NCBI GenBank assembly: GCA_963814735.1
Contig: CAWFEC010000002.1
Span: forward strand, 132,048-196,047
Direction: 5' to 3'
DNA length: 64,000 bases
Source of the DNA: an uncultured Acidobacteriota bacterium
GTDB lineage: Bacteria; Acidobacteriota; Terriglobia; Acidiferrales; UBA7541
Shown: positions 2,004 through 18,560 of the stretch, piece after piece
Layout of the letters: every line of letters starts with the position of its first letter
How positions within the stretch are numbered: position 1 is the stretch's first letter
Notes under the pieces: generated by a model
The model's input: only the letters and a program-made list of their open reading frames with translations
The model's database searches: none
Told to the model about the DNA's origin: nothing
Program-made: the position numbers and the translations under genes

Positions 2004-2020
2004 GCCAGGGGAAATCGCCC

Positions 2021-2827
2021 GTGAGAAAAACGAAGCGTCACTGGGGACTCGAAGTCGACTGGAGAAAGCCCACCCACAAACAGGTCAGGGTGTACGTCTG
2101 GGAATGGCCCGTGCGAGTCGCGCACTGGATCATCGTTACCACGATCCTCTCGCTGTCGATCACGGGCTATTATATGCATTCTCCGTACATCATTCCGCAC
2201 GGAAGAACTGCCTGGGTGATGGGAACGATGCGCTTCGTTCATGTCCTTTCCGGCTTCGCATTTCTTTGCGCGATCCTCATCCGCGTCGCCTGGATGTTTA
2301 TTGGCAACCGGTGGTCGGGCTGGGACCAACTGATTCCCACCACGAAAAAGCGGTGGGAGGATTTCGTCGAAACGTGCCGGTATTACGGCTTCATGAGTTG
2401 GTCGCCGAGGCCCCATATCGGCCACAACGCTCTGGCGGGTGCCGCGTACGCCGCGGTCTTCGGGATGGGGATCGTGGAGATCATCACTGGACTCACGCTC
2501 TACTCGCAGGTTCTCGGCAATAAGGTGCTCAGCTTTTTTGTCGGCTGGATTCCTCACGTTGTGGACATCCAGTGGCTGCGCGAGATTCATTTCATCCTGA
2601 TGTTCTGCTTCTGGATGTTTTTTATTCACCATCTCTACACCGCGATTCTCGTCTCGATCGAGGAGGAGAACGGCGTAATGGAGAGCATCTTCAGCGGATA
2701 CAAATTCATCCCGGAACACGAGTTGCAGGAAGCGCTCGCCGAAGAAGACGAAGCGGATTTGCAGGAGCGAGCGAAAGAGGACCGCGCGATCCCCGCCGGC
2801 GGCCGGAGTACCCGCTCGAGAGCGTGA
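2021..2827 (+). CDS. hupC: Ni/Fe-hydrogenase b-type cytochrome subunit
   Basis: The WPVRVAHWIIV...ITGYYMH...HVLSGFAF pattern and 4 predicted TM segments match HyaC/HupC. The track ORF starts at 1937 inside hupL; the in-frame GTG at 2021, just after the hupL stop, is the more plausible start. Confidence 0.8.
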   Translation: MRKTKRHWGLEVDWRKPTHKQVRVYVWEWPVRVAHWIIVTTILSLSITGYYMHSPYIIPHGRTAWVMGTMRFVHVLSGFAFLCAILIRVAWMFIGNRWSGWDQLIPTTKKRWEDFVETCRYYGFMSWSPRPHIGHNALAGAAYAAVFGMGIVEIITGLTLYSQVLGNKVLSFFVGWIPHVVDIQWLREIHFILMFCFWMFFIHHLYTAILVSIEEENGVMESIFSGYKFIPEHELQEALAEEDEADLQERAKEDRAIPAGGRSTRSRA

Positions 2828-2828
2828 C

Positions 2829-3386
2829 ATGGAAGAGTTGCTGTCCTCGAATACGGTGGTGATAGGAGTCGGCAACACGATCCTCTCGGATGAGGGCGTA
2901 GGTGTGCATGCCGCAAGGCTGCTGCAAAGCGATCCCCGTGTGCCAGCAGGGGTCGCGATTCTGGACGGGGGGACGATCGGGCTCGAATTGGTCCCCTACG
3001 CCTGCGATGCGTCCTACCTTCTGCTTCTCGATGCGATGAACTCGGGCCAAGCGCCCGGAACGCTCGCCCGGATGACTGGCAATGAGTTGCTGGCTACGAA
3101 GACAGGCCGCAGCGCTCACCAACTGGGCGTTGCCGACTTGATTGCGGCCCTCGCCCTCGTATCGACGCGGCCTCAAGATATCGTTGTGCTGGGCGTGCAG
3201 CCAGCGAACACGGATTGGGGCACGTCGTTGTCTCCCGCTGTCGAGGCCGCCCTCGTACCCTTGGTGGATGCCGCTTTAGCCCAGCTCCAACTGTGGAGAC
3301 AATCTGGCCCGGAACCTGCCGCGTCGCCGCTGCCCGCGCAATCTTTGCAGCGAAGAGTCGATTCCTGCCGAGAGGGGGGCTTGTAA
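2829..3386 (+). CDS. hupD: hydrogenase maturation endopeptidase (HyaD/HupD/HybD family)
   Basis: VVIGVGNTILSDEGVGVHAA...ILDGGTIGLELV...LLLLDAM...HQLGVADLI matches the hydrogenase large-subunit C-terminal protease family. The start abuts the hupC stop. Confidence 0.85.
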   Translation: MEELLSSNTVVIGVGNTILSDEGVGVHAARLLQSDPRVPAGVAILDGGTIGLELVPYACDASYLLLLDAMNSGQAPGTLARMTGNELLATKTGRSAHQLGVADLIAALALVSTRPQDIVVLGVQPANTDWGTSLSPAVEAALVPLVDAALAQLQLWRQSGPEPAASPLPAQSLQRRVDSCREGGL

Positions 3387-3387
3387 C

Positions 3388-3648
3388 GTGTGCCTTGCGA
3401 TACCCGGAATGATCGTCAGCAGCCAAGTGAACAACGGAATTCGGAGCGGCCGCGTTCAGTTCGGCGGCATCACGCGGGAAACCTGCCTCGATTTTGTTCC
3501 CGAGGCCGCGGTGGGAGATTACGTGATCGTGCACGTAGGATTTGCAATCAGCCGCGTGGACCGCGAAGAGGCGGAGCGGAGTTACGAACTGCTCGAATCG
3601 ATGGGCTTGCTCAAGGGCGAATTAGCGTCGGATTTGGAAGATTCGTAG
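3388..3648 (+). CDS. hypC: hydrogenase assembly chaperone HypC/HupF
   Basis: A GTG start gives [10 protein letters not shown]..., the invariant N-terminal Cys2 motif. 86 aa. Confidence 0.9.
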
Positions 3649-3658
3649 GCACAAACAT

Positions 3659-4768
3659 ATGAAGTATCTCGACGAATATCGGGATGAGAAAATTGCCCGC
3701 GGAATCGTGGCCCATCTGGCCCGGCGCGTCACCCGACCCTGGGTGCTGATGGAAATTTGCGGCGGGCAGACCCATACGCTGATGCGCTACGGCATCGACG
3801 AAATGCTGCCGGGTGGGATCGAACTGGTTCACGGGCCGGGCTGCCCAGTTTGCGTAACCCCTCTCGAGATGATCGACAAAGCGATCGAGATTGCTTCGCA
3901 GCCCGACGTGACTCTGATTTCTTACGGCGACATGTTGCGCGTGCCGGGCTCTCGTACCGACCTGTTCCACGTGAAGGCACAGGGCGGGGACGTGCGGGTG
4001 GTCTATTCGCCCACCGAGGCGGTCAAGTTCGCCCGGGCAAATCCAGGGCGTAAGGTGGTTTTCTTTGCAGTTGGATTTGAAACCACCGCGCCGGCGAATG
4101 CCATGGCCGTGTGGCAGGCGAAGCGGCAGGGGCTGACGAATTTCTCGATGCTCGCGTCTCATGTTCTCGTGCCGCCCGCCATTCGCGCGCTTCTTGGTTC
4201 GCCACGGAATCGCGTGCAGGGTTTCATCGGCCCGGGGCACGTTTGTACGGTGATGGGCTATCGCGAATACGACGATATCGTCCGGGAATTTCACGTGCCC
4301 ATCGTCGTGGGCGGATTCGAGCCGCTCGATCTGCTAGAAGCGATTTTGATGCTCGTGACGCAACTCGAGGAAGGCCGCGCGCAGGTCGAGAACCAATACG
4401 TCCGATCCGTCACTTACGAAGGCAATCAGCTCGCGCGCAAAATATTGGCGGAGGTATTCGAGGTTTGCGATCGGAAATGGAGGGGCATCGGCGGAATTCC
4501 AGAGAGTGGCCTGAGCCTTCGGGAAGAATACGCCGCATTCGATGCGGATCGCGTGTTTGGGACCGAAGGAGTGACCGCGGAGGAGCCCGCGGAGTGCATC
4601 AGCGCCGAGGTGCTGCAAGGATTGAAGAAGCCGACCGATTGCACTGCTTTCGGGACGCGTTGCACGCCGGAGAATCCGCTGGGCGCGCCGATGGTTTCCT
4701 CCGAGGGCGCCTGCGCCGCCTACTACCGATATCGCCGGCACGCGATGGCGGCAAAGGGGAGCAACTGA
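3659..4768 (+). CDS. hypD: hydrogenase maturation protein HypD
   Basis: MKYLDEYRD start and the GPGCPVCV motif; 369 aa. The stop overlaps the hypE start (TGATG). Confidence 0.95.
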
Positions 4769-5829
4769 TGTCGCGCGGCACGAAGGTCGACGTGGCGCTG
4801 AGCTGCCCGGTTCCGATTGCATCCACGGAGTCGGTCTTGCTGGGCCATGGAAGCGGCGGCCGCATGAGCGGGGATCTGCTGCGGAACATTCTCCTCCCGG
4901 CCTTGCAAAATCCGGTGCTCGGACGGCTGGACGATCAAGCCATCATCGAGGTAGGCGGCTCGCGGATTGCATTTACGACCGATTCCTTTGTGGTGAAGCC
5001 GCTGTTTTTCCCCGGCGGAGACATCGGAACGCTCGCAGTCAACGGCACCGTGAACGATCTGGCGATGGGCGGCGCCGAGCCGCTTTTTCTGAGCCTCGCG
5101 TTGATTCTGGAGGAAGGCTTCCCGCTCGATACGCTGCGCCAGGTGATGGAATCCATTCGCGTGACTGCGGCCATCGCGCGCGTGGTGGTCGTCACCGGAG
5201 ATACGAAAGTCGTCGAAAAGGGAAGCGGTGACGGGCTGTTCGTGAACACTTCGGGAATCGGCCTGGTTACGCCCGGCGTGGGCCTTTCGGCCGACCAGGC
5301 GCGTCCGGGCGATTGTGTGCTGCTCAGCGGTACGATTGGCGATCACGGGATCACGATTCTTTCGCAGCGCGAAGGACTCGAATTCGAAAGCGCGATCGCG
5401 AGCGATACGGCGGCCTTGCATACGCTTGTGGCCGGCATGCTGCGCGCGAGCCCGAAGATTCGTTGCCTGCGCGACCCGACCCGCGGCGGACTCTCGAGTT
5501 CGCTGAATGAGATTGCGGCCCGCTCGCGCGTGGGGATTGAACTCGAAGAGAGCGCGATTCCGATTCGCGACGAAGTGCAGGGCGCGTGCGAGATGCTGGG
5601 GCTCGATCCGCTGTACGTCGCAAATGAAGGCAAGCTCGTGGCGATTGTTGATCCGGGGGCAGCCGACGTCATCCTCGAAGCAATGCAGCGCCATCCGCTG
5701 GGGCGCGACGCACGGCTCATCGGAAGAGTGACGGATTGCCACGCGGAAATGGTCACCATGCGGACGCGGCTCGGAACCTCGCGGATCGTCGATCTCCTCT
5801 CTGGCGATCAATTGCCGCGCATCTGCTGA
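4768..5829 (+). CDS. hypE: hydrogenase maturation carbamoyl dehydratase HypE
   Basis: AIR-synthase-like sequence ending in the conserved C-terminal PRIC. The track ORF (4111..) is a 5' over-extension; ATG 4768 overlaps the hypD stop. Confidence 0.95.
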   Translation: MSRGTKVDVALSCPVPIASTESVLLGHGSGGRMSGDLLRNILLPALQNPVLGRLDDQAIIEVGGSRIAFTTDSFVVKPLFFPGGDIGTLAVNGTVNDLAMGGAEPLFLSLALILEEGFPLDTLRQVMESIRVTAAIARVVVVTGDTKVVEKGSGDGLFVNTSGIGLVTPGVGLSADQARPGDCVLLSGTIGDHGITILSQREGLEFESAIASDTAALHTLVAGMLRASPKIRCLRDPTRGGLSSSLNEIAARSRVGIELEESAIPIRDEVQGACEMLGLDPLYVANEGKLVAIVDPGAADVILEAMQRHPLGRDARLIGRVTDCHAEMVTMRTRLGTSRIVDLLSGDQLPRIC

Positions 5830-5850
5830 GGCCCGGCCGGGACCTGCCCG

Positions 5851-6216
5851 ATGCACGAAATGGGAATCGCCAATTCGGTGCTCGACGTGATTCGAAAGGA
5901 AACGCTTCGCTTCCCGAATGGCCACATCCACAAAGTCGGCGTTCGGATCGGCGAACTCGCGGGCGTTGATCCGGATGCGATGAGCTTCTGTTTTGAAGCC
6001 CTCGTGCGCGGAACGGAACTCGAGCCGCTCGCGCTCGAAATCGAATACTGCCCTCGACGCTATCAATGCCGCGCCTGCGGGCATTCGTACGCCGCGTCGC
6101 GAGATGATTTCGCGTGTCCCGAATGCGGCAAGCTGGATTCGCAGTTCCTCGGAGGCGATGAACTCGAGCTCGCCTATATGGAGGTCGAAGATGGAGCGCG
6201 TGTCGCTGGAGCGTAA
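5851..6216 (+). CDS. hypA: hydrogenase nickel insertion protein HypA
   Basis: MHEMGIANSVL N-terminus (MHE Ni site) and a zinc site CRACG...CPECG. 121 aa. Confidence 0.9.
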   Translation: MHEMGIANSVLDVIRKETLRFPNGHIHKVGVRIGELAGVDPDAMSFCFEALVRGTELEPLALEIEYCPRRYQCRACGHSYAASRDDFACPECGKLDSQFLGGDELELAYMEVEDGARVAGA

Positions 6217-6865
6217 AGTTCTTAACGAAAACGACTTGATTGCCGCCCGTTTGCGGGCGCGGTTTGCCGAACACGATATCCTGTGCCTCAACCTGATCAG
6301 CTCGCCCGGCTCCGGTAAGACCAGCCTTCTCGAGCGCACTCTGGAAAGCTTTGGCCGCGGCGAGCGCGTGGCTGTGCTTACGGGAGACATTCAGACGGAA
6401 AATGACGCGAAACGCCTGGCGCGATTTGGATTTCCGGTGAAACAAATCACAACGGGCGGCACGTGCCATCTCGACGCTCGCATGATCGAAAAGGCGCTTC
6501 TCGACTGGCGCCTCGAAGATATCGGCCTGTTGCTGATCGAAAACGTAGGCAACCTCGTGTGTCCGTCCAGCTACGATTTAGGCGAGGCCGCCAAGATCGT
6601 GGTTCTCAGCGTCGCCGAGGGTGAGGACAAGCCGCTTAAATATCCCTCGATTTTTTTCAAGTCGGAACTTCTGGTCCTCAACAAGACCGACCTCTTGCCG
6701 CACGTGCCGTTCGATATCGCCGCCGCCGAAGAAAACGCGCGGCGCGTTCACCGGGATATGAACATCATTCGAACCTCCTGCGTCACGCGCGAGGGGATTG
6801 CGGAGTGGGTTGCCTGGCTCGAGCGCAAGCGCGAAAGGACGCGTGTGTCCGCCGCCGCATCCTGA
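6191..6865 (+). CDS. hypB: hydrogenase nickel-incorporation GTPase HypB
   Basis: P-loop SSPGSGKTSLLE and NKTDL G4 motif. The start was chosen at ATG 6191 (MERVSLERKVL...), which overlaps the hypA end by 26 nt. The track start at 5993 is an over-extension. Confidence 0.88.
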   Translation: MERVSLERKVLNENDLIAARLRARFAEHDILCLNLISSPGSGKTSLLERTLESFGRGERVAVLTGDIQTENDAKRLARFGFPVKQITTGGTCHLDARMIEKALLDWRLEDIGLLLIENVGNLVCPSSYDLGEAAKIVVLSVAEGEDKPLKYPSIFFKSELLVLNKTDLLPHVPFDIAAAEENARRVHRDMNIIRTSCVTREGIAEWVAWLERKRERTRVSAAAS

Positions 6866-6871
6866 CATGCC

Positions 6872-9202
6872 ATGCAAGTCCGCAAGGAAATCCACGTTTC
6901 GGGATTGGTACAGGGAGTGGGATTCCGGCCATACGTCTACAGGCTCGCGACGGACCGGAACCTCCGCGGCAACATCAGCAACACGCCGGCGGGAGTGACG
7001 ATCGAAATTCAGGGCCCGCCGGAGGCGGTCGAAGACTTCGTCTCGCGCCTCCCCGGAGAGGCGCCGGCCCTCGCGCAGATTACTCGCGTGATCGTTCGCG
7101 AGATGCCGTGCCAGCCGGATCAATCGTTTGAAATTCTGGCCAGCCACACCGGCGATCACGCCAGCGCACTGATTTCCCCGGACGTGGCCGTCTGCGACGA
7201 TTGCCTTCGCGAGCTGCTGGACCCTCACGACCGGCGGTATCTCTATCCCTTCATTAATTGCACGAACTGCGGCCCGCGCTTTACGATCGTGCGCGACATT
7301 CCATACGACCGGCCGAGGACTTCGATGTCGGCGTTCCCGATGTGCGAGAAATGCCGTGCCGAATACGACGACCCTCGAAACCGCCGCTTCCACGCCCAGC
7401 CGAATGCGTGTTGGGAGTGCGGTCCTCATCTCGAAATCTGGAATTTCCAGGGCCATCGGATCGAAACATCCGATCCTATCAGCGCGGCTGTCGAGTGCCT
7501 GCGATCGGGCGAAATCCTTGCGGTAAAGGGACTCGGTGGCTTCCACCTCGCAGTGGATGCCACGAACCCAACGGCGGTGGAGCGATTGCGCCAGCGCAAG
7601 CGGCGCATCGAAAAGCCGTTTGCCGTGATGGTGCGCAATCTGGAGGCCGCCCGCCGATTCTGCCACGTCGATGCCGAAATGGAGCACCTCCTAAGCAGCC
7701 GGCAGCGGCCCATTGTGCTGCTGGCGTGGAAGAAAGCTGCTGCAATCGCCGAGAACCTAGCGCCGAACCAGGGTGATCTCGGAGTCTTCCTGCCGTACAC
7801 ACCCCTGCATCACTTGCTTTTTTCCCTCAGCGACTTCCCGGCATTGGTTATGACCAGCGGGAACCTGAGCGAGGAGCCCATTGCGATCGACAATCGCGAG
7901 GCCGTGGAACGCTTGGGCGGCATCGCCGATCTTTTTCTGATGCACAACCGCGAAATTCTGCTTCGCTGCGATGATTCGGTTGTTCGCCATTCGGCCGGAG
8001 GAACACGGCAGATTCGCCGGTCGCGAGGTTACGTGCCGTCTCCCGTGCGATTGCACCGGGAGATTCCACAGATTCTTGCGGTCGGCGGCGAACTAAAGAA
8101 TACGATCTGTCTCACGCGCGGGAACCTTGCATTCCTGAGCCAGCACATTGGAGATCTCGAAAACGTTGAGAGCTTCGATTTTTTTCGCGATGCGATCGCG
8201 CAGTTTTCGAAGATTCTCGAAGTCGAGCCGGAAATTGTGGCCTACGATCTTCATCCGGATTATCTGTCTACAAAATGGGCTCTGCAGCAGAAAGACGTGC
8301 GTCTCGCCGGCGTGCAGCATCATCACGCTCATATAGCGGCGTGCATGGCGGAAAACAATCTCGAGGGACGCGTGATTGGCCTGGCCCTCGACGGCGCCGG
8401 TTACGGCGCGGATGGGCATATCTGGGGCGGCGAAGTGTTGCTCGCGGATTTCGCAGGTTTCGAGCGCGTGGCGCATTTTGCTTATGCTCCGCTTCCGGGA
8501 GGCGCGGCCGCCATTCGTGAGCCTTGGCGCATGGCGGTGAGCCATCTGATGCGAGCGTTCGGCGAAGATTTCTTGAACCTGGACATTCCCTTCGTGCGAG
8601 GACTCGATCGCGGCAAGACAGAGCTCGTGATGCACATGATCGCGCGAGAAGTGAATTGTCCATTGACCTCAAGTTGCGGACGCCTATTCGACGCCGTGGC
8701 GGCGCTACTCGGCATTCGCCAAGAAGTGACTTACGAAGCGCAGGCTGCCATTGAACTCGAAATGTCGGCGCGGCCCTCAGCCGAAACCGCTGCTTATCCA
8801 TTCGCCATGCGTGCCCAGGACGGGCGATGGCAGATCGATGCGTCGCCGCTGTTTGCCGCCATCGTCGAAGATCTTCGCCGGAACGTGTGCGCGGCAACGA
8901 TCAGCCGCCGATTTCACAACGGCCTTGTCGAAACGCTCGTGCGCGTCGCGTCTCTGTTGCGCGGGGAATCCTCGATCAATCGGATCTGTTTAAGCGGTGG
9001 TACGTTCAATAACATGCTTGTGTTCGAGCCTTTAGTTCGCAGGCTGGAATCAGAGCGCTTTGAAGTTTTCACTCATTCCGAGGTTCCCGCGGGCGACGGC
9101 GGCCTGAGCCTGGGGCAGGCGCTGGTGGCAGCACACATCGCGCCAACTGAAGGCAAAACATCGGGGCTCGCCGGGATTCAATCGGGCGTTCGTTTTGGGT
9201 AA
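6872..9202 (+). CDS. hypF: carbamoyltransferase HypF
   Basis: 776 aa. Acylphosphatase-like N-terminus, two CxxC-x18-CxxC zinc fingers (CDDCLRE...CTNCGPRF and CEKCRAE...CWECGP), and YrdC-like and Kae1-like regions. Confidence 0.95.
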   Translation: MQVRKEIHVSGLVQGVGFRPYVYRLATDRNLRGNISNTPAGVTIEIQGPPEAVEDFVSRLPGEAPALAQITRVIVREMPCQPDQSFEILASHTGDHASALISPDVAVCDDCLRELLDPHDRRYLYPFINCTNCGPRFTIVRDIPYDRPRTSMSAFPMCEKCRAEYDDPRNRRFHAQPNACWECGPHLEIWNFQGHRIETSDPISAAVECLRSGEILAVKGLGGFHLAVDATNPTAVERLRQRKRRIEKPFAVMVRNLEAARRFCHVDAEMEHLLSSRQRPIVLLAWKKAAAIAENLAPNQGDLGVFLPYTPLHHLLFSLSDFPALVMTSGNLSEEPIAIDNREAVERLGGIADLFLMHNREILLRCDDSVVRHSAGGTRQIRRSRGYVPSPVRLHREIPQILAVGGELKNTICLTRGNLAFLSQHIGDLENVESFDFFRDAIAQFSKILEVEPEIVAYDLHPDYLSTKWALQQKDVRLAGVQHHHAHIAACMAENNLEGRVIGLALDGAGYGADGHIWGGEVLLADFAGFERVAHFAYAPLPGGAAAIREPWRMAVSHLMRAFGEDFLNLDIPFVRGLDRGKTELVMHMIAREVNCPLTSSCGRLFDAVAALLGIRQEVTYEAQAAIELEMSARPSAETAAYPFAMRAQDGRWQIDASPLFAAIVEDLRRNVCAATISRRFHNGLVETLVRVASLLRGESSINRICLSGGTFNNMLVFEPLVRRLESERFEVFTHSEVPAGDGGLSLGQALVAAHIAPTEGKTSGLAGIQSGVRFG

Positions 9203-9783
9203 GCGAAGAGAGTGGTCCCCGGCGGCAGCGGGCCGTGCGCGGGAAGATCGTCGAATGTGATTGCAATCTGCGGTGCCTCGACGACGGCCGCCGAGTCGCC
9301 GGCAAAAAGAGACAGCGGAATAACATCGGCCATAGCTCGATACCCTGCTGGCGATGGATGCAGGTGATCCCCCGAATCGAATGCCGGAAGCAGCCGGTCC
9401 GGGTGCTCAGGATCGCGCATCGCCTTATCGAAATCGATTACTGCGTCGAAATGGCCTGGATCGCGAATCCACTGATTGATCGCTTGCCGGTCTGCTTCGC
9501 TGGCCGGACCGGGGTGATAAAACTCGGAGCCAACGAACGGCATGATCGTCGCCCCAATGAGCTCGATGCCGTGCGTATGACTTTTCGTGATGATCTGCTG
9601 GTATGCGACGAGGACACGGTGAACGAGCGCGTCGTGCTCTGACTGCGACACCTCGCCATCGTGCGTCAGCATGCCGATGTCGTTGATTCCTTCGAGCACG
9701 ATCAAGTAACCGGCGCCTGTCTGCGCGAGCACGTCGTGATCGAACCGGGCGGAGGCGTTCGGACCGAGTCCATCGAGAAGCAA
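9178..9783 (-). pseudogene. SGNH/GDSL hydrolase, N-terminally truncated remnant
   Basis: Block III (LEGINDIG) and block V (DSGDHLHPS) are present. Block II (GIGGNRLLLDG) is only partly inside the ORF, which opens right after an in-frame TAA. No block I GDS motif is found in any frame upstream, where the CE15 gene begins. The 3' end overlaps the hypF 3' end by 25 nt. Confidence 0.55.
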
Positions 9784-9933
9784 GCGGTTTCCGCCAATCC
9801 CATGTCTACGCGATGGCTCTTAATACATCGAAGTCTGCACCTTGAAGGGCTCGATTGAACGCGATATGTTCGGGGCGCTTATTTGCGACCGCCATTGCCC
9901 GGAAACTTACGGCGCTGTGGCCAAGGAGAATTC

Positions 9934-11373
9934 GTGCTAAGCGAGCGAACGATTCGGTGGCCATCGCGTTCGATCTTATTTGCCCTTATTGTAATTGCCG
10001 GGTGGCTTGCTTGCGGCGCCGATTTTGCACAATCTCCGGACAAGCGCGCGCTTCCTGCGCCAGTGCAGCTCACAGCGGAACAAGATCACCAGAGGATGAT
10101 GAATCTGCTGCACATCACTTCGCTCCGCCGGGCCCGGGACGCGAATCCCGCCTCGCCGTACGCGGCGAATTCCGACGAGTCCAAGGCCAACCCGTACCCG
10201 AAACTGCCGGACCCGCTGAGACTGAACAACGGAAAGAAGGTGACGTCGGCGAAGATGTGGTGGACGAAACGGCGTCCCGAGATTGTCGAGGACTTCGATC
10301 GAGAAGTGTATGGGCGCGTGCCGAAGGACACTCCGAAAGTGAATTGGGAAGTGGCGGACACAACGCGCGAAACGATCGGTGGCGTGCCGGTGGTTACGAA
10401 GAAGCTTGTAGGGCACGTAGATAACTCGTCGTATCCGCTGATCACTGTGGACATTCAGGCGACGCTCACGACGCCCGCGAATGCCGCGGGGCCCGTGCCG
10501 GTGATGATCGATTTCGGATTCGATCAGGCGTTCATGGCCCGGCTGCGCGCGCAAATGGAGGCTCGCGGACAAAAGTTTCCAGCTCCTCCACCCGGTCCTA
10601 CATGGCAGGAGCAAGTGCTGGCCAAGGGTTGGGGCTACGCGATTCTCGTTCCGACGAGCTATCAGGCGGACAACGGCGCCGGCTTGACTCAGGGAATCAT
10701 CGGCCTGTGCAACAAGGGGCAGCCTCGCAAGCCGGATGATTGGGGAGCTTTGCGAGCGTGGGCATGGGGTGCGAGCCGCCTGCTCGATTACTTTGAGACC
10801 GACCCGAGCGTAGACGCCAAGCGAGTCGGCATCGAGGGGCTGTCGCGCTACGGGAAGGCGACGCTCGTGACGATGGCTTACGACCAGCGGTTCGCGATTG
10901 CGCTGGTTGGCTCGTCGGGGGCGGGCGGAGCCAAACTCTTCCGGCGCAATTTCGGCGAGGCCGTGGAAAACCTGGCAGCCACCGGTGAATACCACTGGAT
11001 GGCCGGAAATTTCCTGAAGTTTGCTGGGCCGCTGAACGCGAGCGATCTTCCGGTGGATGCGCACGAACTCATCGCGATGGCCGCGCCGCGGCCCGTGTTT
11101 ATCAGCTGCGGCTCACCTCTTGTCGAGGGCACGTGGGTGGACGACAAGGGTCAATTCATGGCCGAAGTGGCAGCCGGGCCGGTATACGAACTTCTCGGAA
11201 AACGAGGATTGGGAGTGACGGAGATGCCGCCGATCGGCACTGCCTTGATCGACGGCGACCTGGCGTTTCGCCAGCATGAAGGTCCGCACACGGATTTGCC
11301 GAATTGGCCGGCGTTCTTGGAATTTGCATCGCGCTACATGAGCGAGCCGCACTCGGCGCGTGCGGCCAATTAG
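9934..11373 (+). CDS. secreted glucuronoyl esterase-like alpha/beta hydrolase (CE15 family-like)
   Basis: The G-L-S-R-Y-G-K motif matches the CE15 G-C-S-R-x-G-K nucleophile signature. Signal-peptide-like N-terminus from GTG 9934 (VLSERTIRWPSRSILFALIVIAGWLACG), preceded by AAGGAG at 9923-9928. Confidence 0.7.
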   Translation: MLSERTIRWPSRSILFALIVIAGWLACGADFAQSPDKRALPAPVQLTAEQDHQRMMNLLHITSLRRARDANPASPYAANSDESKANPYPKLPDPLRLNNGKKVTSAKMWWTKRRPEIVEDFDREVYGRVPKDTPKVNWEVADTTRETIGGVPVVTKKLVGHVDNSSYPLITVDIQATLTTPANAAGPVPVMIDFGFDQAFMARLRAQMEARGQKFPAPPPGPTWQEQVLAKGWGYAILVPTSYQADNGAGLTQGIIGLCNKGQPRKPDDWGALRAWAWGASRLLDYFETDPSVDAKRVGIEGLSRYGKATLVTMAYDQRFAIALVGSSGAGGAKLFRRNFGEAVENLAATGEYHWMAGNFLKFAGPLNASDLPVDAHELIAMAAPRPVFISCGSPLVEGTWVDDKGQFMAEVAAGPVYELLGKRGLGVTEMPPIGTALIDGDLAFRQHEGPHTDLPNWPAFLEFASRYMSEPHSARAAN

Positions 11374-11424: not shown

Positions 11425-11946
11425 TTAGGGCGTCGAAAGAAGATCGGCCTTGCCGGTTTCGAGGTCGACGGGAAACGATACGTGTTCCTGGACGATCAGC
11501 CATTTCCCCTTGATTTTGCGGAATACGTCGGTGACGCGCACCACTGCGTTCAGCGAGGAGCCGTCTTTGCGCGTGAATGTGCTTGATTGGATGTCGTGAC
11601 CGTAGGCTACTGGGCCGACGACCGTAATGTCTATATCCGACACTGTGGTCTTCGCCGGACCGGGGAAAGCGGAAAGAAGCCCTTCCCAATCTCGCTTATA
11701 GGCGTCCCAACTGGGATATTCGCGCGGAGGGACGGCGTCGAAAACGAATAGGGCCTTCCCGCGGGCGTAGCAGGACATGATCCCGTCGACATTCCGGCTG
11801 TTGAAGGCATCGCCATACGCCGTTATGAGCGCCTCGATCTCGTCCTTGTCGCTCGTCGGCGGAGCTTGAGCACGCACGCGAACTAAAACGCCCGACAGCA
11901 CAACCGCCAGAATCAAGAGTCCTACCAAAGCTGCGGATTTCTTCAT
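11425..11946 (-). CDS. secreted SnoaL/NTF2-like (DUF4440-like) protein
   Basis: Signal peptide MKKSAALVGLLILAVVLSG. IEALITAYGDAFNSRNVDGIMSCY...GKWLIVQEHVS is typical of the NTF2-like fold. AAGGAAA RBS. Confidence 0.6.
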   Translation of the reverse strand: MKKSAALVGLLILAVVLSGVLVRVRAQAPPTSDKDEIEALITAYGDAFNSRNVDGIMSCYARGKALFVFDAVPPREYPSWDAYKRDWEGLLSAFPGPAKTTVSDIDITVVGPVAYGHDIQSSTFTRKDGSSLNAVVRVTDVFRKIKGKWLIVQEHVSFPVDLETGKADLLSTP

Positions 11947-12243: not shown

Positions 12244-14037
12244 CTATCGCCACTTGTCTATCGACGCGCTGCCGAAGTAGCTGAAGTCTCCGCCGGCCCA
12301 GTACGTGTTTGTTTCCCCGCCCAGCACGATTATTTCGATGGAGGACTTGGGGTTGGGATCGGGCGGCGCGCCAAAACGGCCTCGCCGATAGAAGCGTTGG
12401 AAAGGAAGATCGGCGTCGCCCATCTTCAGGTACGAGGCGTAGGGTTCGACGCCCGCCTGCGCTTGCTTTAGGTCGTTCTGGTGCGTGTCCCAGTATAGCC
12501 ACGCCGGTGTCTTCGTGTTCTTCGACCAGTAGTCGCTTAACTCTTCCTTCGAGTTGAATCCCTTTTCCTTTGCCTCGCGGGCCACGGTTGGATCGAGCAG
12601 CAGCGTGGCGGCGCTGGTGCCGAACGAGAAGAAATGCGTCAGCCAGTTGTTGATCAGTTCGTGGTAGGGCATCTTGGGGAACCATGCGACGTTGTTCAGG
12701 CTCCAGCCGCTGAAGATGCTGACGACGCTTTCCTCGGGTTTGAAGCCCTTTTGCACGTGGAACGGCTTCCAGCCGTCTGGCAGCTTGTTTTCCGTTTCCG
12801 CGATGCACAAGTTGTTGTAATTGAAGTTGGATCCCAGGGTGCCCAGGTAGGTGAGTCCGGCCACGCCACAGCCGCCGAGGTTTTTCGAAAGGATCGTCCA
12901 CGCGCGGCCAATCACAGCATTGGGTTCGGCGAAGGGGCCCATCGCGCCGATGCCGTAGTTCATCTTGATTTGGTCGGAAATAGGACCGTTCAGCATCACC
13001 ATCCGGGTGAAGGATGACGTCGAGCTGAAAAGCGACGGCTGTCCGGTCGATGCGATCGCCAAGATGGCGGGCAGGTGTTCGGGACTCGCGCCAGCCATGA
13101 CGGCATTGATGGCAACGTGCCTGACGGTGAACGTCCACGAAGCCTGCGCGCCGCGGGCGGCGCTCAACGTGCCGATCACTTCATCCGGCTTGTGGCTCGT
13201 GCCCTTCAGCATCGCCTCGACCTTTTCCTCGGTGGGAAGGATGATGGGCATGAAATCGGTGTAGTTGTTGTCGCAATACAGGCGCTGCAGCTCATCCGGA
13301 GTGCCCGAGTACATGGGCGGGCCGACGTCGGGAGTGACGGTGCCGGTCTTCTTCTCGTCCGCCGTCAAGGGAGTCGTCAGGGCGGAAATGATTTCCGGCA
13401 TCAGCGGCTTGTTTGTAACCGGATCGTTGCCCAAGAGGACCTGGTACATCTCCGCGTCGGTTTTGTTGGTCATCGGGTGAGGCAGGAAGCAAATGCGCTC
13501 GTCAGGCATGCCACGGCCAGCCGCATTCGACCTCGCAAGATCCTTGAAGGCGATCGTGACCAAGGGAGCGGTGGGGAGACCCATTTTCTCAACTTGTGCG
13601 CAGTGACCGACGGTCGCTGGTGTGCAGGTGCTTCAATGCCCATACGCCATGATCATGGCGTTGCCGTTCGCTTTCATTTCCGCCGTCAGCTTGGGGTCGT
13701 CATCGAAATACGACCCGGCTTTCAGTCGGTACACGGTCTTGACGCTCGGCATGTTCTTCGAGAACCAGATCGCGATTTGATTCAGGAAGCGATCGGCTCC
13801 GGCGAAGCCGTCTGAGACGAGGTAGATGGTTTTTCCGTCGAGCGTGGTCAGGCGCGGGGCCATCGGAATTAGCTGAACCCCGGGCGGCACACCCTTGGGA
13901 TTGAACGTCTCGAGTTTCGCCGGCCCCGCTGAGGTCTTCGCTTTTTTCGCTGGTTCGGCGAGCGTTGGAGACGACCCGGCCAAAATAGCCGAGGAAACGC
14001 CAATCAGCGACAGTAGCTTTCTTCGATTAATCTTCAT
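12244..14037 (-). CDS. candidate Tat-exported selenoprotein (597 aa if UGA 13633-13635 is decoded as Sec): UxxC module fused to a domain of unknown function
   Basis: Track ORFs 13633..14037 and 12244..13584 share one frame, separated by a single TGA plus 16 sense codons. The junction reads ...MIMAYGH-U-STCTPATVGHCAQVEKMGLPTAPLVTIAF.... Twin-arginine signal MKINRRKLLSLIGVSSAILAGSSPTLA. See findings. Confidence 0.6.
13597..13635 (-). other. in-frame UGA (13633-13635) plus downstream SECIS-like hairpin (13597-13626)
   Basis: Manual fold of the mRNA: UGC/GCA outer stem, CAG/CUG and GACC/GGUC inner stems, apical GUC loop. The loop G-U lies about 22-24 nt after the UGA, comparable to the spacing in E. 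coli fdhF. Not verified with a covariance model. Confidence 0.4.
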
Positions 14038-14153
14038 CTTTTTTCCCCCACAGTCTTGCGTCAGACGGCTATCAGTACCTGCGACACATTACTACACCTG
14101 ACGCACATTTAGACTGCCGCTCATCGAATTCGGTTACACATCCGAAACCCTGT

Positions 14154-15923
14154 CTATGGCAACGCGAACACGTAGATCGCGTTGCTCCCGGTCGTCGGCG
14201 TATGCATGTCGGGTATCTCGTTGGCCAGCTCCGGAACTTTGAGATTGTAGCCCGTCATCACGCAGACGTATTCCTTGCCGTTCACCCCATACGTGATCGT
14301 GCTCACCGAGACGTTGCCGCCGAGAATCGATTCCCAAAGTTTCTTGCCGGTTCGCGCATCGAAGGCGCTGAATCGTCGGCTCATGTCCCCGTGAAACACG
14401 AGACCCCCCGCTGTGGTGACCACGGAAGCCGTGCTCGGGGCGCGGCCCTCGTCGAAACGCACCATGTCGCCGGTCGAGAGATTAATCTTCGCCAGGCCGG
14501 CGAGTTTGTTGGGATCGGACCCGGGCCGCGGAATCACTTTCCACGAGCCGCGTATGCCGGGAGCGGCCGTGGTGAGATCGCGGCAATTATCGACGTACGG
14601 CACGTAGAGAGAATTCGTGAGCGGGTCATACGACGTGGGCCAATAGCTGCGCGTGTTCCAGAAGCAAATGATGTGGTGCTCGCCCGGCTTCTTGGTGACG
14701 ATGTCCCAGTTCAACGTGGTTTGCCCTGTCTTCACGTTGACGCTCGCGAGGTTGAAATTCGGGTCGTCGTAAGGAAAGGGCATGGCCCAGAGAAATTTGC
14801 CGTTGTTCCGATCCAGGGCAAAAACCGAGCCGCCTTCGGAAACCATCACCGCCATATCGTGCTTCGATCCGCGCGGAACATCGGGATTGATCCACTTCAC
14901 GGCTTTCGGATCGGGATCGAAGGGTTCGTTCACCAACGTGCGCTCGTGCGTGTGATCCGTGTCCCAGTCGTCGCCCGGCAGATGCTGGTAATACCAGATC
15001 AGCCGTCCCGTCTTCGGATCGAGCGCCAGCGTGCAATTGCTGTAGAGGTCTGCGGGCGAAGTCCGCGCGGTGCCATCAGGATTGCCGCCGTGCCGCAGAA
15101 TGCGCTGATCGGGCATGGGATTCGCCACGCCCCAGTAGATCACGTTGCGCGCAGGGTCGAAGCTCCCCGGCAATCCCCATGTGGATGCCGTATCCTGCGA
15201 GTTGTCACCGCCTCCCCATGAGGAATATCCGGGATCATCGGGTCCAGCGACGTTGTAAAAGCGCCAAACTTTTTCGCCCGTTTCGGCGTTGTCCGCCTCG
15301 ATGAAGCAAGTATCGCGGCCGTGGCCGCAGGTGCCCCCGGATACGACGTTGCCGTCGATCACCAGTGGGCCCGACGTATTGGCCGTCTGCGTCTTGAAGG
15401 TCTCCCAGCGGACTTTTCCGGTGCGCGCGTCGAGCGCGACCACGTAGCCATCGGGCGCCGTGAAATAAACCATGTCTTCATAAATCGCGAGACACTTGGA
15501 TCTTTCTGTGGAGCCGATCTGCGGATTCTTGTACTCGCGCTTGTATTCCCAGATGAGGTCGCCGGTGGTGGCATCGAGCGCGTCGACCATGCCCCCCGGC
15601 GCGATCACGTACATCACGCCGTCATGCACGATCGGAATCGTCTCGGTGACGCCATCCGGAAGGCTGCGCACCCACGCCATGCGAAGCTGGCCCACGTTTT
15701 TCGTGTTGATCTGCGAAAGCGGGCTGTAGCGCCACGCATCGTACGTGCGGCTATACATCAGCCAGTCGTCCGGGCTGGGATGCAGCAGCATTTCGTTTGT
15801 GACGGGTTTGTAGTTCTCGACTTGCCTGTACTCGACCGGCTTATTGTCCAAGGTCTGCCCAAACGCGGGCACGACGATCCCCGCGAAGCATAGGCACACA
15901 GCAAGAGTCCGGATCCGAACCAT
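14154..15923 (-). CDS. PQQ-dependent dehydrogenase (quinoprotein alcohol/methanol dehydrogenase family), periplasmic
   Basis: About 589 aa from ATG 15923 (MVRIRTLAVCLCFAGIVVPAFG signal peptide). N-terminal LLHPSPDDWLMYSRTYDAWRYSPLSQI and repeated W-containing propeller motifs are characteristic of the family. GGGGGAAC RBS. Confidence 0.85.
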   Translation of the reverse strand: MVRIRTLAVCLCFAGIVVPAFGQTLDNKPVEYRQVENYKPVTNEMLLHPSPDDWLMYSRTYDAWRYSPLSQINTKNVGQLRMAWVRSLPDGVTETIPIVHDGVMYVIAPGGMVDALDATTGDLIWEYKREYKNPQIGSTERSKCLAIYEDMVYFTAPDGYVVALDARTGKVRWETFKTQTANTSGPLVIDGNVVSGGTCGHGRDTCFIEADNAETGEKVWRFYNVAGPDDPGYSSWGGGDNSQDTASTWGLPGSFDPARNVIYWGVANPMPDQRILRHGGNPDGTARTSPADLYSNCTLALDPKTGRLIWYYQHLPGDDWDTDHTHERTLVNEPFDPDPKAVKWINPDVPRGSKHDMAVMVSEGGSVFALDRNNGKFLWAMPFPYDDPNFNLASVNVKTGQTTLNWDIVTKKPGEHHIICFWNTRSYWPTSYDPLTNSLYVPYVDNCRDLTTAAPGIRGSWKVIPRPGSDPNKLAGLAKINLSTGDMVRFDEGRAPSTASVVTTAGGLVFHGDMSRRFSAFDARTGKKLWESILGGNVSVSTITYGVNGKEYVCVMTGYNLKVPELANEIPDMHTPTTGSNAIYVFALP

Positions 15924-16107
15924 ACGATGTTCCCCCGAGCCCAGTGGCCGAAATAAGCGCGCGCACAAGAACCGGGGGCATCCTACAGCAGGTCGCGGTA
16001 CGCCTCAATAGCCAGATCGCCGTGATCTAAAAATATTCCCCGTGGTTGCTTGCGGGGACGGGAAGTAATCTAATTCTCAGTGTAGAAGGATTTCAGGAGG
16101 AGCGATC

Positions 16108-16296
16108 ATGGCAAAGTATGGCAAAGCAGCCAGCAAGAGCGTCGAACGGGCGCTGCGTCTTGAGAAGAGTGGCAAATTGAAGTCCGGGAAGGGCGGAAAA
16201 GGCGGCAAGGTGACGAGCCGCAAGCAGGCAATCGCGATCGGACTTTCGGAAGCGCGCAAAAGAGGCGCGAAGGTTCCCAAGAAGAAATCCCGCTAG
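16108..16296 (+). CDS. small basic protein (DUF6496-like, KGG-rich)
   Basis: 62 aa, with AGGAGG 7 nt upstream. SRKQAIAIGLSEARKRGAKVPKK resembles a widespread small conserved protein family. Confidence 0.55.
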   Translation: MAKYGKAASKSVERALRLEKSGKLKSGKGGKGGKVTSRKQAIAIGLSEARKRGAKVPKKKSR

Positions 16297-16532
16297 TTGC
16301 GTTTGCTTCGTTGTCGCGACGAAGCACGACCGCGAGCGTATGACGACGCCCATCGTGTCGATATCGTGTGATTCCGCGCGGCGCGGGCTCCCGGTTCACC
16401 CTGTGAAAGAGCGCCGAAACCGCCTTCTTGCCGTTCGCCGGAATACGCTAAGATAAAAGCTGCGAGCATTTTGCGCGCTGCTCGCTCCACTTCGGATCTT
16501 GGAACGCGTCCACTCAGGGAGGAAACGACGCG

Positions 16533-18560
16533 ATGAATGGCCAGAAGCACTCACGAATCGCCGAGCCGGACAGTGGCCACCCGGAACGTGTCACGATCAC
16601 CAGTGTCTCACCGGCGTTGGACGGGGGCCGCTATCCGATCAAGCGCATCATCGGCGACGAAGTCAAAGTGAGCGCCAACGTCTTCGCGGACGGCCACGAA
16701 GTTCTCGGAGCTGTCCTACTCCATCGCACCGACAGGCAAACCCTATGGAACGAAGTTCCGATGGCAGCGCTCGAGAACGATCGATGGGAAGCCAGCTTTC
16801 GCGTTTCGTCGATTGGCGAGCACGTCTACACCGTTCAGGCCTGGATCGACCCTTTCAGGACGTGGCGCCGCGACATGATCAAGCGTGTCGAGGCAGGGCA
16901 ACAGGCTTCGGTCGATTTGCTGATTGGCGCAGGTCTGATCGCGTGGGCCGCCGAGCGCGCTTTGGGCGCTGAAAGCAAGGAACTCCGCACGCATGCCGAT
17001 TCAGTGCGCGCGAATGCCGAGCGCGATCTTGGTTATGCCGCCGAGCAGGCGCTCGACGAGCGGGTGGCGCAGCTGATGGATCGATATCCCGACAGGCGCC
17101 ATGGCAGCACCTATGACAAGCCTCTCCGCGTCGTGGTCGATCGAGAAAAAGCGCGCTTCAGCAGCTGGTACGAGATGTTTCCGCGCTCTTGTTCTCCGAA
17201 ACCCGGCCGGCACGGTACGTTTCGAGACTGCGTTGCGCGCTTGCCTTACGTTGCCGAAATGGGATTTGACGTCCTGTACCTCCCGCCCATTCATCCGATC
17301 GGCTGCGTCCATCGCAAAGGAAAAAACAACGGCACCGTCGCGGCCCCCGACGACCCCGGCAGCCCGTGGGCGATTGGCTCGCGCGACGGCGGCCACAAGT
17401 CGATCCTCCGCGAGCTCGGCACGATCGAGGATTTTCGCGCGCTCGTGCAGGCCACGCGCCAGCAGGGAATGGAAGTTGCGCTCGATATCGCCTTCCAGTG
17501 CGCGCCCGATCATCCTTATGTTCGCGAGCATCCCGAGTGGTTTCACATTCGCCCCGACGGGACGGTCCAATACGCCGAGAATCCGCCAAAGAAATATGAA
17601 GACATCGTTCCAATCAATTTCGATACGGAACAGTGGCGCGAACTTTGGGCCGAGCTGAAAGACATTGTCCTCTTCTGGATCGGCCACGGCGTCCGCATAT
17701 TCCGCGTCGATAATCCGCACACGAAGCCATTTCCCTTCTGGGAGTGGCTGATCTCGGAAATCAAGCGCGACTATCCGGATGTTTTATTCCTGGCGGAGGC
17801 ATTCACGCGGCCCAAGGTGATGTATGAGCTCGCGAAGCGCGGATTCTCACAGTCCTACACCTATTTTGCGTGGCGCAACACGCCCTGGGAATTGACCGAA
17901 TACTTCACCGAGCTGACGCAAACGGAGGTCAGCGAGTTTTTTCGTCCGAATCTCTGGCCCAACACGCCCGACATCCTTACGGAAAATCTGCAATTGGGTG
18001 GACGCCCCGCGTTCATGGCGCGCGCAGTTCTGGCCGGCACGCTCGGCGCGAGCTACGGAATGTATGGTCCTGCCTTTGAGCTGTGCGAGAACCGGCCGAT
18101 CTACGCGGGAAGCGAAGAGTATCTGGATTCGGAAAAATATCAGATTCGGAATTGGGACATCGCGCGTCCCGACAGCCTGAAGGATTGGATCGCCCGGATC
18201 AACCGGGCCCGCCGCGAAAACCCGTGCCTGCAGAGCGACGCAGGGCTGAGATTTCATTCCATCGATAACGACAATTTCATCGCCTATTCGAAATCGACCG
18301 AGGATCGCTCGTCGCTGATCGTCGTTGTCGTGAATCTGAATCCGTACCAAAAGCACAACGGCTGGGTTACGCTGCCGCTCGAAGCCCTCGGCCTGTCGGA
18401 GCATCAGCCATACCAGATGCACGATCTTCTCAGCGACGCGCGCTACATCTGGCAGGGCTCGCGCAATTACGTGGAGCTCGATCCGGCCGCGGCGCCGGCG
18501 CATATTTTCCGCGTTCGTCGGCACGTCCGCTCCGAGCAGGATTTCGATTATTTCGAATAG
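16533..18560 (+). CDS. glgE: alpha-1,4-glucan:maltose-1-phosphate maltosyltransferase
   Basis: 675 aa. N-terminal GGRYPIKRIIGDEV (DUF3416 domain) followed by a GH13 catalytic region (FRVDNPHTKP, FLAEAFTRP). Confidence 0.9.
   Translation: MNGQKHSRIAEPDSGHPERVTITSVSPALDGGRYPIKRIIGDEVKVSANVFADGHEVLGAVLLHRTDRQTLWNEVPMAALENDRWEASFRVSSIGEHVYTVQAWIDPFRTWRRDMIKRVEAGQQASVDLLIGAGLIAWAAERALGAESKELRTHADSVRANAERDLGYAAEQALDERVAQLMDRYPDRRHGSTYDKPLRVVVDREKARFSSWYEMFPRSCSPKPGRHGTFRDCVARLPYVAEMGFDVLYLPPIHPIGCVHRKGKNNGTVAAPDDPGSPWAIGSRDGGHKSILRELGTIEDFRALVQATRQQGMEVALDIAFQCAPDHPYVREHPEWFHIRPDGTVQYAENPPKKYEDIVPINFDTEQWRELWAELKDIVLFWIGHGVRIFRVDNPHTKPFPFWEWLISEIKRDYPDVLFLAEAFTRPKVMYELAKRGFSQSYTYFAWRNTPWELTEYFTELTQTEVSEFFRPNLWPNTPDILTENLQLGGRPAFMARAVLAGTLGASYGMYGPAFELCENRPIYAGSEEYLDSEKYQIRNWDIARPDSLKDWIARINRARRENPCLQSDAGLRFHSIDNDNFIAYSKSTEDRSSLIVVVVNLNPYQKHNGWVTLPLEALGLSEHQPYQMHDLLSDARYIWQGSRNYVELDPAAAPAHIFRVRRHVRSEQDFDYFE

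Follow-up and report, generated by a model that had tools for sequence, protein, structure and literature searches.

A gene split by an in-frame UGA probably encodes a long, two-domain selenoprotein of the UGSC family in an uncultured acidobacterium

We analyzed a 64,000-nucleotide stretch of DNA from an uncultured Acidobacteriota bacterium (contig CAWFEC010000002.1; hereafter, the window), in which two open reading frames (ORFs) on the minus strand are interrupted by an in-frame TGA. The gene product is very probably a selenoprotein of the UGSC family, and we have good reason to regard the two ORFs as a single gene for a 597-residue protein of the long, two-domain form. The gene is genuine but nothing unusual for its known family, and is routinely mis-annotated as two genes. 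Its features are as follows.

12244–14037, minus strand: probable long-form UGSC-family selenoprotein gene, 597 codons with selenocysteine (Sec) at codon 135, then TAG at 12244–12246
13633–13635, minus strand: UGA codon 135, probably read as Sec, position 1 of the U-S-T-C motif; TGA or Cys in aligned homologues, with the Pfam UGSC domain spanning the codon
13624–13626, minus strand: Cys138 codon, presumed resolving Cys of U-x-x-C; Cys at +3 in 101 of 106 distinct junctions
13597–13626, minus strand: hairpin of the selenocysteine insertion sequence (SECIS) type, nucleotides 10–39 from the U of the UGA; best local hairpin by unbiased enumeration
13441–13902, minus strand: UGSC module, residues 46–199, an alpha/beta domain; Pfam PF24696, 86.8 bits against a cut-off of 25
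12247–13320, minus strand: conserved C-terminal domain (C-domain), residues ~240–597, with invariant columns and a confident model, without a Pfam family
13957–14037, minus strand: predicted twin-arginine translocation (Tat) signal peptide, residues 1–27, MKINRRKLLSLIGVSSAILAGSSPTLA, predicted cleavage before EP; RR-x-L-L, h-region and T-L-A c-region read directly
14044–14049, minus strand: Shine-Dalgarno-like GGGGGA, 6–12 nucleotides 5′ of the true start ATG (14035–14037), read directly

Translation of 12244–14037 on the minus strand gave 598 codons, with the TGA at codon 135 as the sole internal stop and TAG as the terminator. The ORF listing divides this frame into 13633–14037 (134 amino acids) and 12244–13584 (446 amino acids); between the TGA (13635–13633) and the ATG at 13584 lie 16 sense codons, reading STCTPATVGHCAQVEK. 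A preliminary description of this DNA had reported the same arrangement, and its sequence-level observations all held. The junction peptide is AMIMAYGH-U-STC-TPATVGHC, which contains a U-x-x-C motif of the literal form U-S-T-C. The blocks that had been described downstream of the motif (G-[LI]-P-T, here G-L-P-T, and P-H-P) are present in the translation and near-invariant across the aligned homologues.

The preliminary description had proposed asking whether homologues continue across the junction. We searched 5.8 billion proteins with the read-through protein and obtained two classes of homologue: continuous proteins of 578–615 amino acids, aligned end to end with 100% query coverage, and pieces of ~446 amino acids with 75% query coverage. 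The continuous homologues, some of which NCBI names “UGSC family (seleno)protein”, carry Cys precisely at codon 135, in the context MAIGH-C-STCTPATVGHC. On orthologous contigs, a UGSC ORF of ~134 amino acids was followed in every case by an ORF of ~446 amino acids, and the TGA and its flanking peptide were kept in 9 out of 9 orthologous junctions, including that of the window. A scan of one genome per species yielded more than 599 loci. We kept 80 for comparison, spanning Acidobacteriota, Desulfobacterota, Chloroflexota, Actinomycetota, Alpha-, Beta- and Gammaproteobacteria, Verrucomicrobiota, Latescibacterota and others; the closest of these was an Acidobacteriota metagenome-assembled genome (MAG) with 85% identity. 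The codon at the Sec site in ~112 aligned junctions was TGA in 100 (~90% of relatives), TGC in nine, TGT in one and another codon in three, and U-S-T-C was the commonest form of the motif (50 out of 106 distinct junctions). Coding conservation extended on both sides of the UGA. These alignments demonstrate, at the level of comparative sequence evidence, that the UGA at codon 135 does not terminate translation here.

Some relatives depart from this pattern at the Sec site. A distant signal-less subclade (P0075, P0086, P0104, P0112, P0120 and L024 6283) has neither Sec nor Cys there and reads GQLDTC or GQLDTN, with a Leu codon (CTA) in L024; several members also have an insertion of ~33 residues early in the C-domain. 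If the UxxC motif is catalytic, this subclade must be inactive or work differently. A Chloroflexia MAG (L081; 1310, 3094 and 13204) contains three TGA paralogues without the resolving Cys (U-S-N-A, U-S-G-A and U-T-G-A), in which a Trp precedes the Sec site (GVAW-U) and the C-domain still follows in at least two of the three; the chemistry at their Sec site would be different. In Acidobacteriota, tandem or clustered long-form paralogues are common (L004 7737–11341, L005 702–4306, and three copies each in L009 and L013), and in L013 a single 6-kb contig holds all three, two of them Cys forms and the third a Sec form.

The hairpin at 13597–13626, which had been described beforehand as SECIS-like in its spacing, was also the top result of our unbiased enumeration. 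Its inner stem pairs 13612–13615 with 13605–13608 around an apical G-U-C loop (13609–13611, nucleotides G25-U26-C27), and its outer pairs join 13617–13619 with 13601–13603 and 13624–13626 with 13597–13599, for a folding energy of −8.3 kcal/mol. Comparison of Sec and Cys forms showed GU in the apical loop in 90 out of 96 and 2 out of 10, respectively. The loop began 20–25 nucleotides from the U of the UGA in Sec forms and was scattered in Cys forms, and the median energies of the best hairpin were −11.75 and −6.6 kcal/mol, respectively (p = 5e-4).

We tested covariation in 95 distinct Sec junctions, aligned without selection, using 500 shuffles and slid registers as controls. The majority helix scored 0.314, compared with 0.170 for shuffled alignments, and none of the 500 shuffles reached the observed value; 84 double-sided compensatory changes were observed in this helix against 34 expected. 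Slid registers scored no more than 0.184, and the register of the window's clade behaved like the majority register. A second test used the 20 distinct Sec genes of that clade, all with the peptide TPATVGHC. Their stem codons (CCA GCG ACC ... GGT CAC TGC) were identical in all 20, even though CCA and GGT are rarely used in this gene. Codons outside the stem and the wobble base of the loop varied freely in the same genes, and in the two Cys forms that have this peptide, CCC and GGC replace CCA and GGT and break stem pairs. Judged by these comparisons, the downstream hairpin matches what is expected of a bacterial SECIS in its position, its GU-containing apical loop, its covariation and the freezing of synonymous sites.

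Membership of the UGSC family, a resemblance suggested in the preliminary description, proved to be a true Pfam match: with U replaced by C, the PF24696 match runs across the TGA, and the same model was matched by 65 out of 65 relatives scanned. The claim that this was an undescribed selenoprotein that would be new did not survive. A selenoprotein termed “UGSC-containing protein” was reported in 2007 (PMC1976440), and in 2008 UGSC ranked among the selenoprotein families of highest abundance in ocean metagenomes, with a UxxC motif and 255 Sec against 21 Cys forms (PMC2398784). The family is listed in later surveys and reviews (to 2026) as uncharacterized in function (PMC5029168, PMC9312934, PMC13188914), and both Pfam and NCBIfam hold models of it. 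Nor is the two-domain form rare, as shown by the more than 599 matches in species-representative genomes, and the gene's own 90%-identity cluster has already been labeled UGSC by NCBI. The 2008 Global Ocean Sampling study also reported a “UGSC/Unknown_1” fusion (PMC2398784). Our full-text literature search found no functional study of the family, and in the searched literature we did not find a description of the ~360-residue C-terminal domain as such, of the Tat-signal, pyrroloquinoline quinone (PQQ)-dehydrogenase-linked acidobacterial form, of signal-less forms paired with a thioredoxin reductase (TrxR)-like flavoprotein, or of placement in selenium islands.

To view the fold, we used an AlphaFold2 model of a natural Cys form (P0012; 597 amino acids, 64% identical to the window protein). 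The model had a predicted local distance difference test score (pLDDT) of 85.9 and a predicted template modeling score (pTM) of 0.85; only the signal peptide, a region of low pLDDT, was disordered. Position 135 lies between a beta-strand (127–133) and a helix (138–151). A Foldseek search of the PDB with the full-length model returned nothing at E < 1e-3, and no thioredoxin-fold protein was among the top 50 matches; the partial matches, all weak, were to flavodoxin/Rossmann-like domains (PTS IIB, TIR, SIS and B12-binding). The model therefore does not support the likely thioredoxin-like fold suggested for UGSC in 2008 (PMC2398784). Among the 65 relatives, the only recurrent matches to hidden Markov models (HMMs) outside UGSC were to PrdB (nine), GrdB (four, best E 0.0027), GrdF (four) and GrdH (three), all at the Sec region. 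These matches point to a remote relationship of the UGSC module to GrdB/PrdB, not to membership.

The C-domain is highly conserved. Its invariant positions include T260-D261, P264, P268, A309–G316 (VAINAVMAG), S339, S342, N350-G351-P352, R378, W380, E414, E416 and D594, and it was modeled with confidence on its own (pLDDT 87.6, pTM 0.88). A permissive scan of 65 members found no recurrent Pfam family, sequence profiles found no relative in the PDB, and Foldseek against the PDB with the C-domain model gave nothing at E < 1e-3 (best E 0.013, probability 0.12), in agreement with the earlier remark that the C-terminal ~350 residues fit no named family. Class I fumarate hydratase and the “Toblerone-fold” cyclic amide hydrolase were considered as fold relatives and judged to be noise (probability of 0.15 or less). 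Clustering of 1.84 billion proteins at 50% identity gave 3,043 representatives with this domain, which also stands behind paralogues with the literal U-G-S-C motif. Four proteins of 709–741 amino acids (P0208, P0216, P0228 and P0231) have two C-domain stretches without a UGSC module or any other Pfam domain; therefore, the C-domain can exist apart from the selenoprotein module. We found no informative fusion partner among the unusual C-domain architectures.

At the N terminus, the motif N-R-R-K-L-L-S is part of a sequence with the layout of a Tat signal, and its RR pair is kept in ~33 homologous copies, mostly from Acidobacteriota. Tat export to the periplasm is favored on this pattern, with reservations. 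The upstream neighbor on the same strand is as follows.

14154–15968, minus strand: PQQ-dependent dehydrogenase beta-propeller with an N-terminal signal-like sequence; PF01011, 185.6 bits

We found no promoter-like or terminator-like site in the 116-nucleotide gap between this gene and the UGSC-long gene, and the two are probably co-transcribed. A PQQ dehydrogenase neighbor was present at 13 acidobacterial loci, all of the Tat form. Signal-less copies in other phyla adjoin a TrxR-type flavoprotein of ~309 amino acids in 25 cases, and sometimes also have short-chain dehydrogenases/reductases (9 loci) or peptide-type ATP-binding cassette transporter genes (10 loci) nearby. We also considered whether the selenoprotein might service a vicinal Cys-Cys disulfide in the PQQ dehydrogenase, and abandoned this because no two Cys residues of that enzyme are adjacent.

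Relatives of the window gene are found together with Sec machinery. One locus (L046, 6001–13362) carries, in order, UGSC-long, SelD, the TrxR-like flavoprotein, SelA, SelB and tRNA-Sec; a second (L061, 1520–7629) has the mirror arrangement, and a third (L076, 13300–13396) also has tRNA-Sec. Selenium-utilization islands of the L046 type occur in some proteobacterial MAGs, and the position of the gene within a complete Sec island suggests that UGSC-long is a principal selenoprotein of these aerobic proteobacteria. In a syntenic acidobacterial relative (L002), whose UGSC-long orthologue is 83% identical, a Tat-signal formate dehydrogenase alpha subunit (FdhA; 14700–17879, plus strand) lies ~4 kb from that orthologue. 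It has a TGA at QARV-U-HGPTV and a downstream hairpin of −23.8 kcal/mol, is followed by Fe-S, cytochrome b and FdhE genes, and has been broken into 194 + 848 amino acids by gene callers.

By the established route of Sec decoding in bacteria, SelB with its Sec-tRNA(Sec) would bind the hairpin and insert Sec at codon 135; with selenium or SelB in short supply, translation would instead end in release of a 134-residue fragment. The model, the motif and the remote homology suggest that Sec135 and Cys138, at a strand-to-helix junction, would cycle between the selenol/thiol and selenenylsulfide states in an alpha/beta module with a distant relationship to the part of the GrdB/PrdB selenoprotein B reductases that bears Sec. 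The 360-residue C-terminal domain, to judge from its conservation, may supply the substrate site. The RR signal would send the folded protein through Tat to the periplasm, to work with the co-transcribed PQQ dehydrogenase, as sequence and neighborhood suggest; in signal-less relatives, the adjoining TrxR-like flavoprotein is the probable NAD(P)H-linked reductant. Our confidence that the mechanism is GrdB-like and substrate-reducing, as opposed to a redox relay, falls somewhat short of even. More tentatively, the long form could be an undescribed two-domain selenoenzyme class, with a GrdB/PrdB-like Sec module joined to a catalytic domain of ~360 residues with a fold outside the PDB, acting reductively on a small molecule. 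It would be periplasmic after Tat export and work with a PQQ dehydrogenase in Acidobacteriota, and be cytoplasmic and TrxR-like-powered in aerobic Proteobacteria, Chloroflexota and Actinomycetota, in some of which a selD-selA-selB-selC island would be built around the selenoprotein.

A number of results count against these interpretations. In single-sequence folding, the window hairpin alone was not significant: 25 out of 100 dinucleotide shuffles folded equally well, and the z-score of the 66-nucleotide stretch was +0.44. No SECIS or other relevant Rfam family was found in the whole window at the gathering threshold or in 13540–13660 at E <= 10. Because the window hairpin is not significant alone, its reality rests on comparative evidence; of the SECIS check that had been proposed, the Rfam scan gave no match, and conservation in relatives was found in the covariation and the frozen stem codons. 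The NCBIfam equivalog NF041046 (147 positions) gave 68.2 bits and did not reach its cut-off of 125, so the window protein is not a canonical UGSC protein of ~150 amino acids; long-form relatives score 58–78 bits with this model. With the GrdB/PrdB models (TIGR01917, TIGR01918 and TIGR04483), the window protein scored 12 bits (E = 0.1), where the cut-off is 300, and we found no partners of the GrdA, GrdC, GrdD, GrdE or PrdA type near the gene. The GrdB/PrdB resemblance suggested in the preliminary description thus recurs as a signal in relatives and falls far below the family cut-offs. No Tat HMM reached significance for the window protein, and weak matches occurred in 1 out of 65 relatives each; the “clear” twin-arginine signal claimed earlier holds in its RR layout and conservation, not as an HMM match. 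The link to the PQQ dehydrogenase is one of gene neighborhood, confined to Acidobacteriota, and the roles assigned to the C-domain and Cys138 are inferred. Finally, we did not find selA, selB, selD or tRNA-Sec within the 64-kb window, although a window of this size is uninformative on the point; because it holds no sel genes, the Sec capacity of this genome is judged from relatives.

The alternative that fares best accepts the selenoprotein and takes its U-x-x-C to be not a reductase nucleophile but a relay or redox carrier comparable to thioredoxin, DsbA or GrdA. It would then pass electrons to or from the PQQ dehydrogenase or the C-domain, or protect against periplasmic oxidative damage. Such a role would suit the thiol-oxidoreductase-like character of most bacterial UxxC selenoproteins (PMC2398784, PMC13188914), the redox enzymes encoded by the partner genes, and our failure to find a pyruvoyl substrate-activating subunit of the GrdE/PrdA type nearby. 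However, the module is not thioredoxin-like in the model and its fold matches are flavodoxin/Rossmann-like. It also comes as a permanent fusion with a large, highly conserved domain, whose many invariant polar residues suggest an enzyme active site, and the module's sole remote sequence relatives are the substrate-reducing selenoprotein B enzymes. We consider a relay possible, if rather doubtful.

We think it very improbable that the TGA is a genuine stop, with a 134-residue exported fragment and a 446-residue cytoplasmic protein that starts at the ATG at 13584, as in public annotation. Gene callers and the NCBI, JGI and ENA records do keep the two pieces apart, and the non-significant hairpin and the lack of Sec machinery in the window fit such an arrangement. 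The internal ATG, however, has GAG alone as a possible ribosome-binding site, as had been pointed out earlier, compared with GGGGGA at the true start, and it is an ordinary conserved Met (EKMG) in the Cys-form homologues. Moreover, all relatives conserve the peptide encoded by the 16 “intergenic” codons, a single Pfam domain spans the TGA, Cys replaces the stop in continuous homologues, and the synonymous sites of the stem are frozen only in the TGA forms.

It is extremely unlikely that the UGA is read without Sec, for example by code reassignment or by near-cognate suppression that inserts Trp, Cys or Gly. Some bacterial lineages do reassign UGA, and no Sec machinery was found in the window. 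Against this, of 13 further Pfam-validated window genes, 6 have TGA as their normal stop, and one of these is HypE, at its canonical C-terminal PRIC; therefore, the code is standard and the recoding at 13633–13635 site specific. The aligned residue is Cys, the analogue of Sec, a SelB-type hairpin is present, and relatives are clustered with selA, selB, selD and tRNA-Sec. A sequencing or assembly error, or the mark of a pseudogene, is what a single in-frame stop in one sequence looks like, but the chance of either is negligible given the same TGA in ~100 genes of many phyla, assembled independently from many samples, the 237-member 90% cluster of the downstream piece and the strong protein-level conservation of both halves.

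Taken as a selenoprotein gene, the window's gene is not itself surprising. It belongs to a common class that public records still show as two entries, a “hypothetical protein” plus a truncated “UGSC family (seleno)protein”. The two ORFs of the window are present in public databases as such split pieces on a 372-kb contig, listed separately in NCBI, JGI and ENA records: of the gene's 90%-identity clusters, NCBI names the C-terminal piece “UGSC family (seleno)protein” and the N-terminal piece “hypothetical protein”. With ~3,000 cluster representatives of the C-domain, thousands of selenoproteins are mis-called. The context described here (the C-domain fusion, the TrxR-like partner, the selenium islands and the Tat/PQQ variant in soil Acidobacteriota) provides testable handles on UGSC function.

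Other genes near the UGSC-long gene in the window, of carbohydrate-related or mixed function, encode a GDSL esterase (9178–9783, minus strand), a glucuronyl-esterase-like protein (9883–11373, plus strand), a SnoaL-like protein (11425–11946, minus strand) and GlgE maltosyltransferase (16533–18560, plus strand); GlgE synteny is common to the window and L004 only. A 748-residue ORF (29056–31302, plus strand) is 24%–28% identical to the molybdopterin formate dehydrogenase of L002 and has no in-frame TGA. In L001, a Tat-signal molybdopterin oxidoreductase (3451–5752, minus strand) is split into 495 + 256 amino acids and corresponds to a single 763-residue ORF in L002 (4058–6349, minus strand); the cluster is Psr/ACIII-like, with Fe-S, NrfD and ActD genes following. 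This split looks more like a frameshift or assembly error than Sec because the TGA at which the frame breaks is soon followed by a TAG. A standard [NiFe]-hydrogenase and maturation cluster occupies 294–9202 on the plus strand:

294–2003, plus strand: [NiFe]-hydrogenase large subunit
1937–2827, plus strand: cytochrome b
2829–3386, plus strand: HycI-type protease
3659–4768, plus strand: HypD
within 4111–5829, plus strand: HypE
5830–6216, plus strand: HypA
5993–6865, plus strand: HypB
6872–9202, plus strand: HypF

This cluster contains a second TGA-joined ORF pair (5827–5829, plus strand; PRIC-TGA-GPAGTCPMH), which we rejected as Sec: the TGA is the ordinary HypE stop at the C-terminal PRIC, with HypA directly after it.

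The window protein shares with the UGSC family (PF24696; NF041046; Zhang and Gladyshev 2007–2008) a U/C-x-x-C motif, the dominance of Sec (here 100 against 10) and a SECIS directly downstream. It differs in having U-S-T-C, which has the generic U-x-x-C form and not the literal U/C-G-S-C motif, and in its extension of ~400 amino acids with a conserved domain and its predicted Tat-type signal. Tat-exported selenoenzymes such as the periplasmic formate dehydrogenases FdnG/FdhA, of which L002 has an example, likewise combine a twin-arginine signal (a predicted one in the window protein), an in-frame UGA and a SECIS. By contrast, the window protein has no molybdopterin/Fe-S domain or known cofactor to explain Tat dependence, and its Sec sits in UxxC rather than serving as a metal ligand.

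The E. coli fdhF SECIS, in whose loop G23 and U24 are essential, resembles the window hairpin in beginning ~10–11 nucleotides after the UGA and presenting its apical G-U at nucleotides 22–26, and the majority loop of the family, GGUC, resembles the fdhF loop, as does the position of its GU. The hairpin of the window's clade is shorter and weaker, with a 3-nucleotide GUC loop 3–4 nucleotides downstream of the majority register. In GrdB, GrdF, GrdH and PrdB, of the glycine, sarcosine, betaine and D-proline reductases, U-x-x-C stands at the equivalent place in an alpha/beta module. A TrxR-type flavoprotein is associated with grd operons, just as one is associated with the signal-less UGSC-long relatives. 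The C-terminal domain of the window protein is, however, a different one, and whereas the Grd and Prd complexes act in the cytoplasm of anaerobes, the window form is predicted to be periplasmic.

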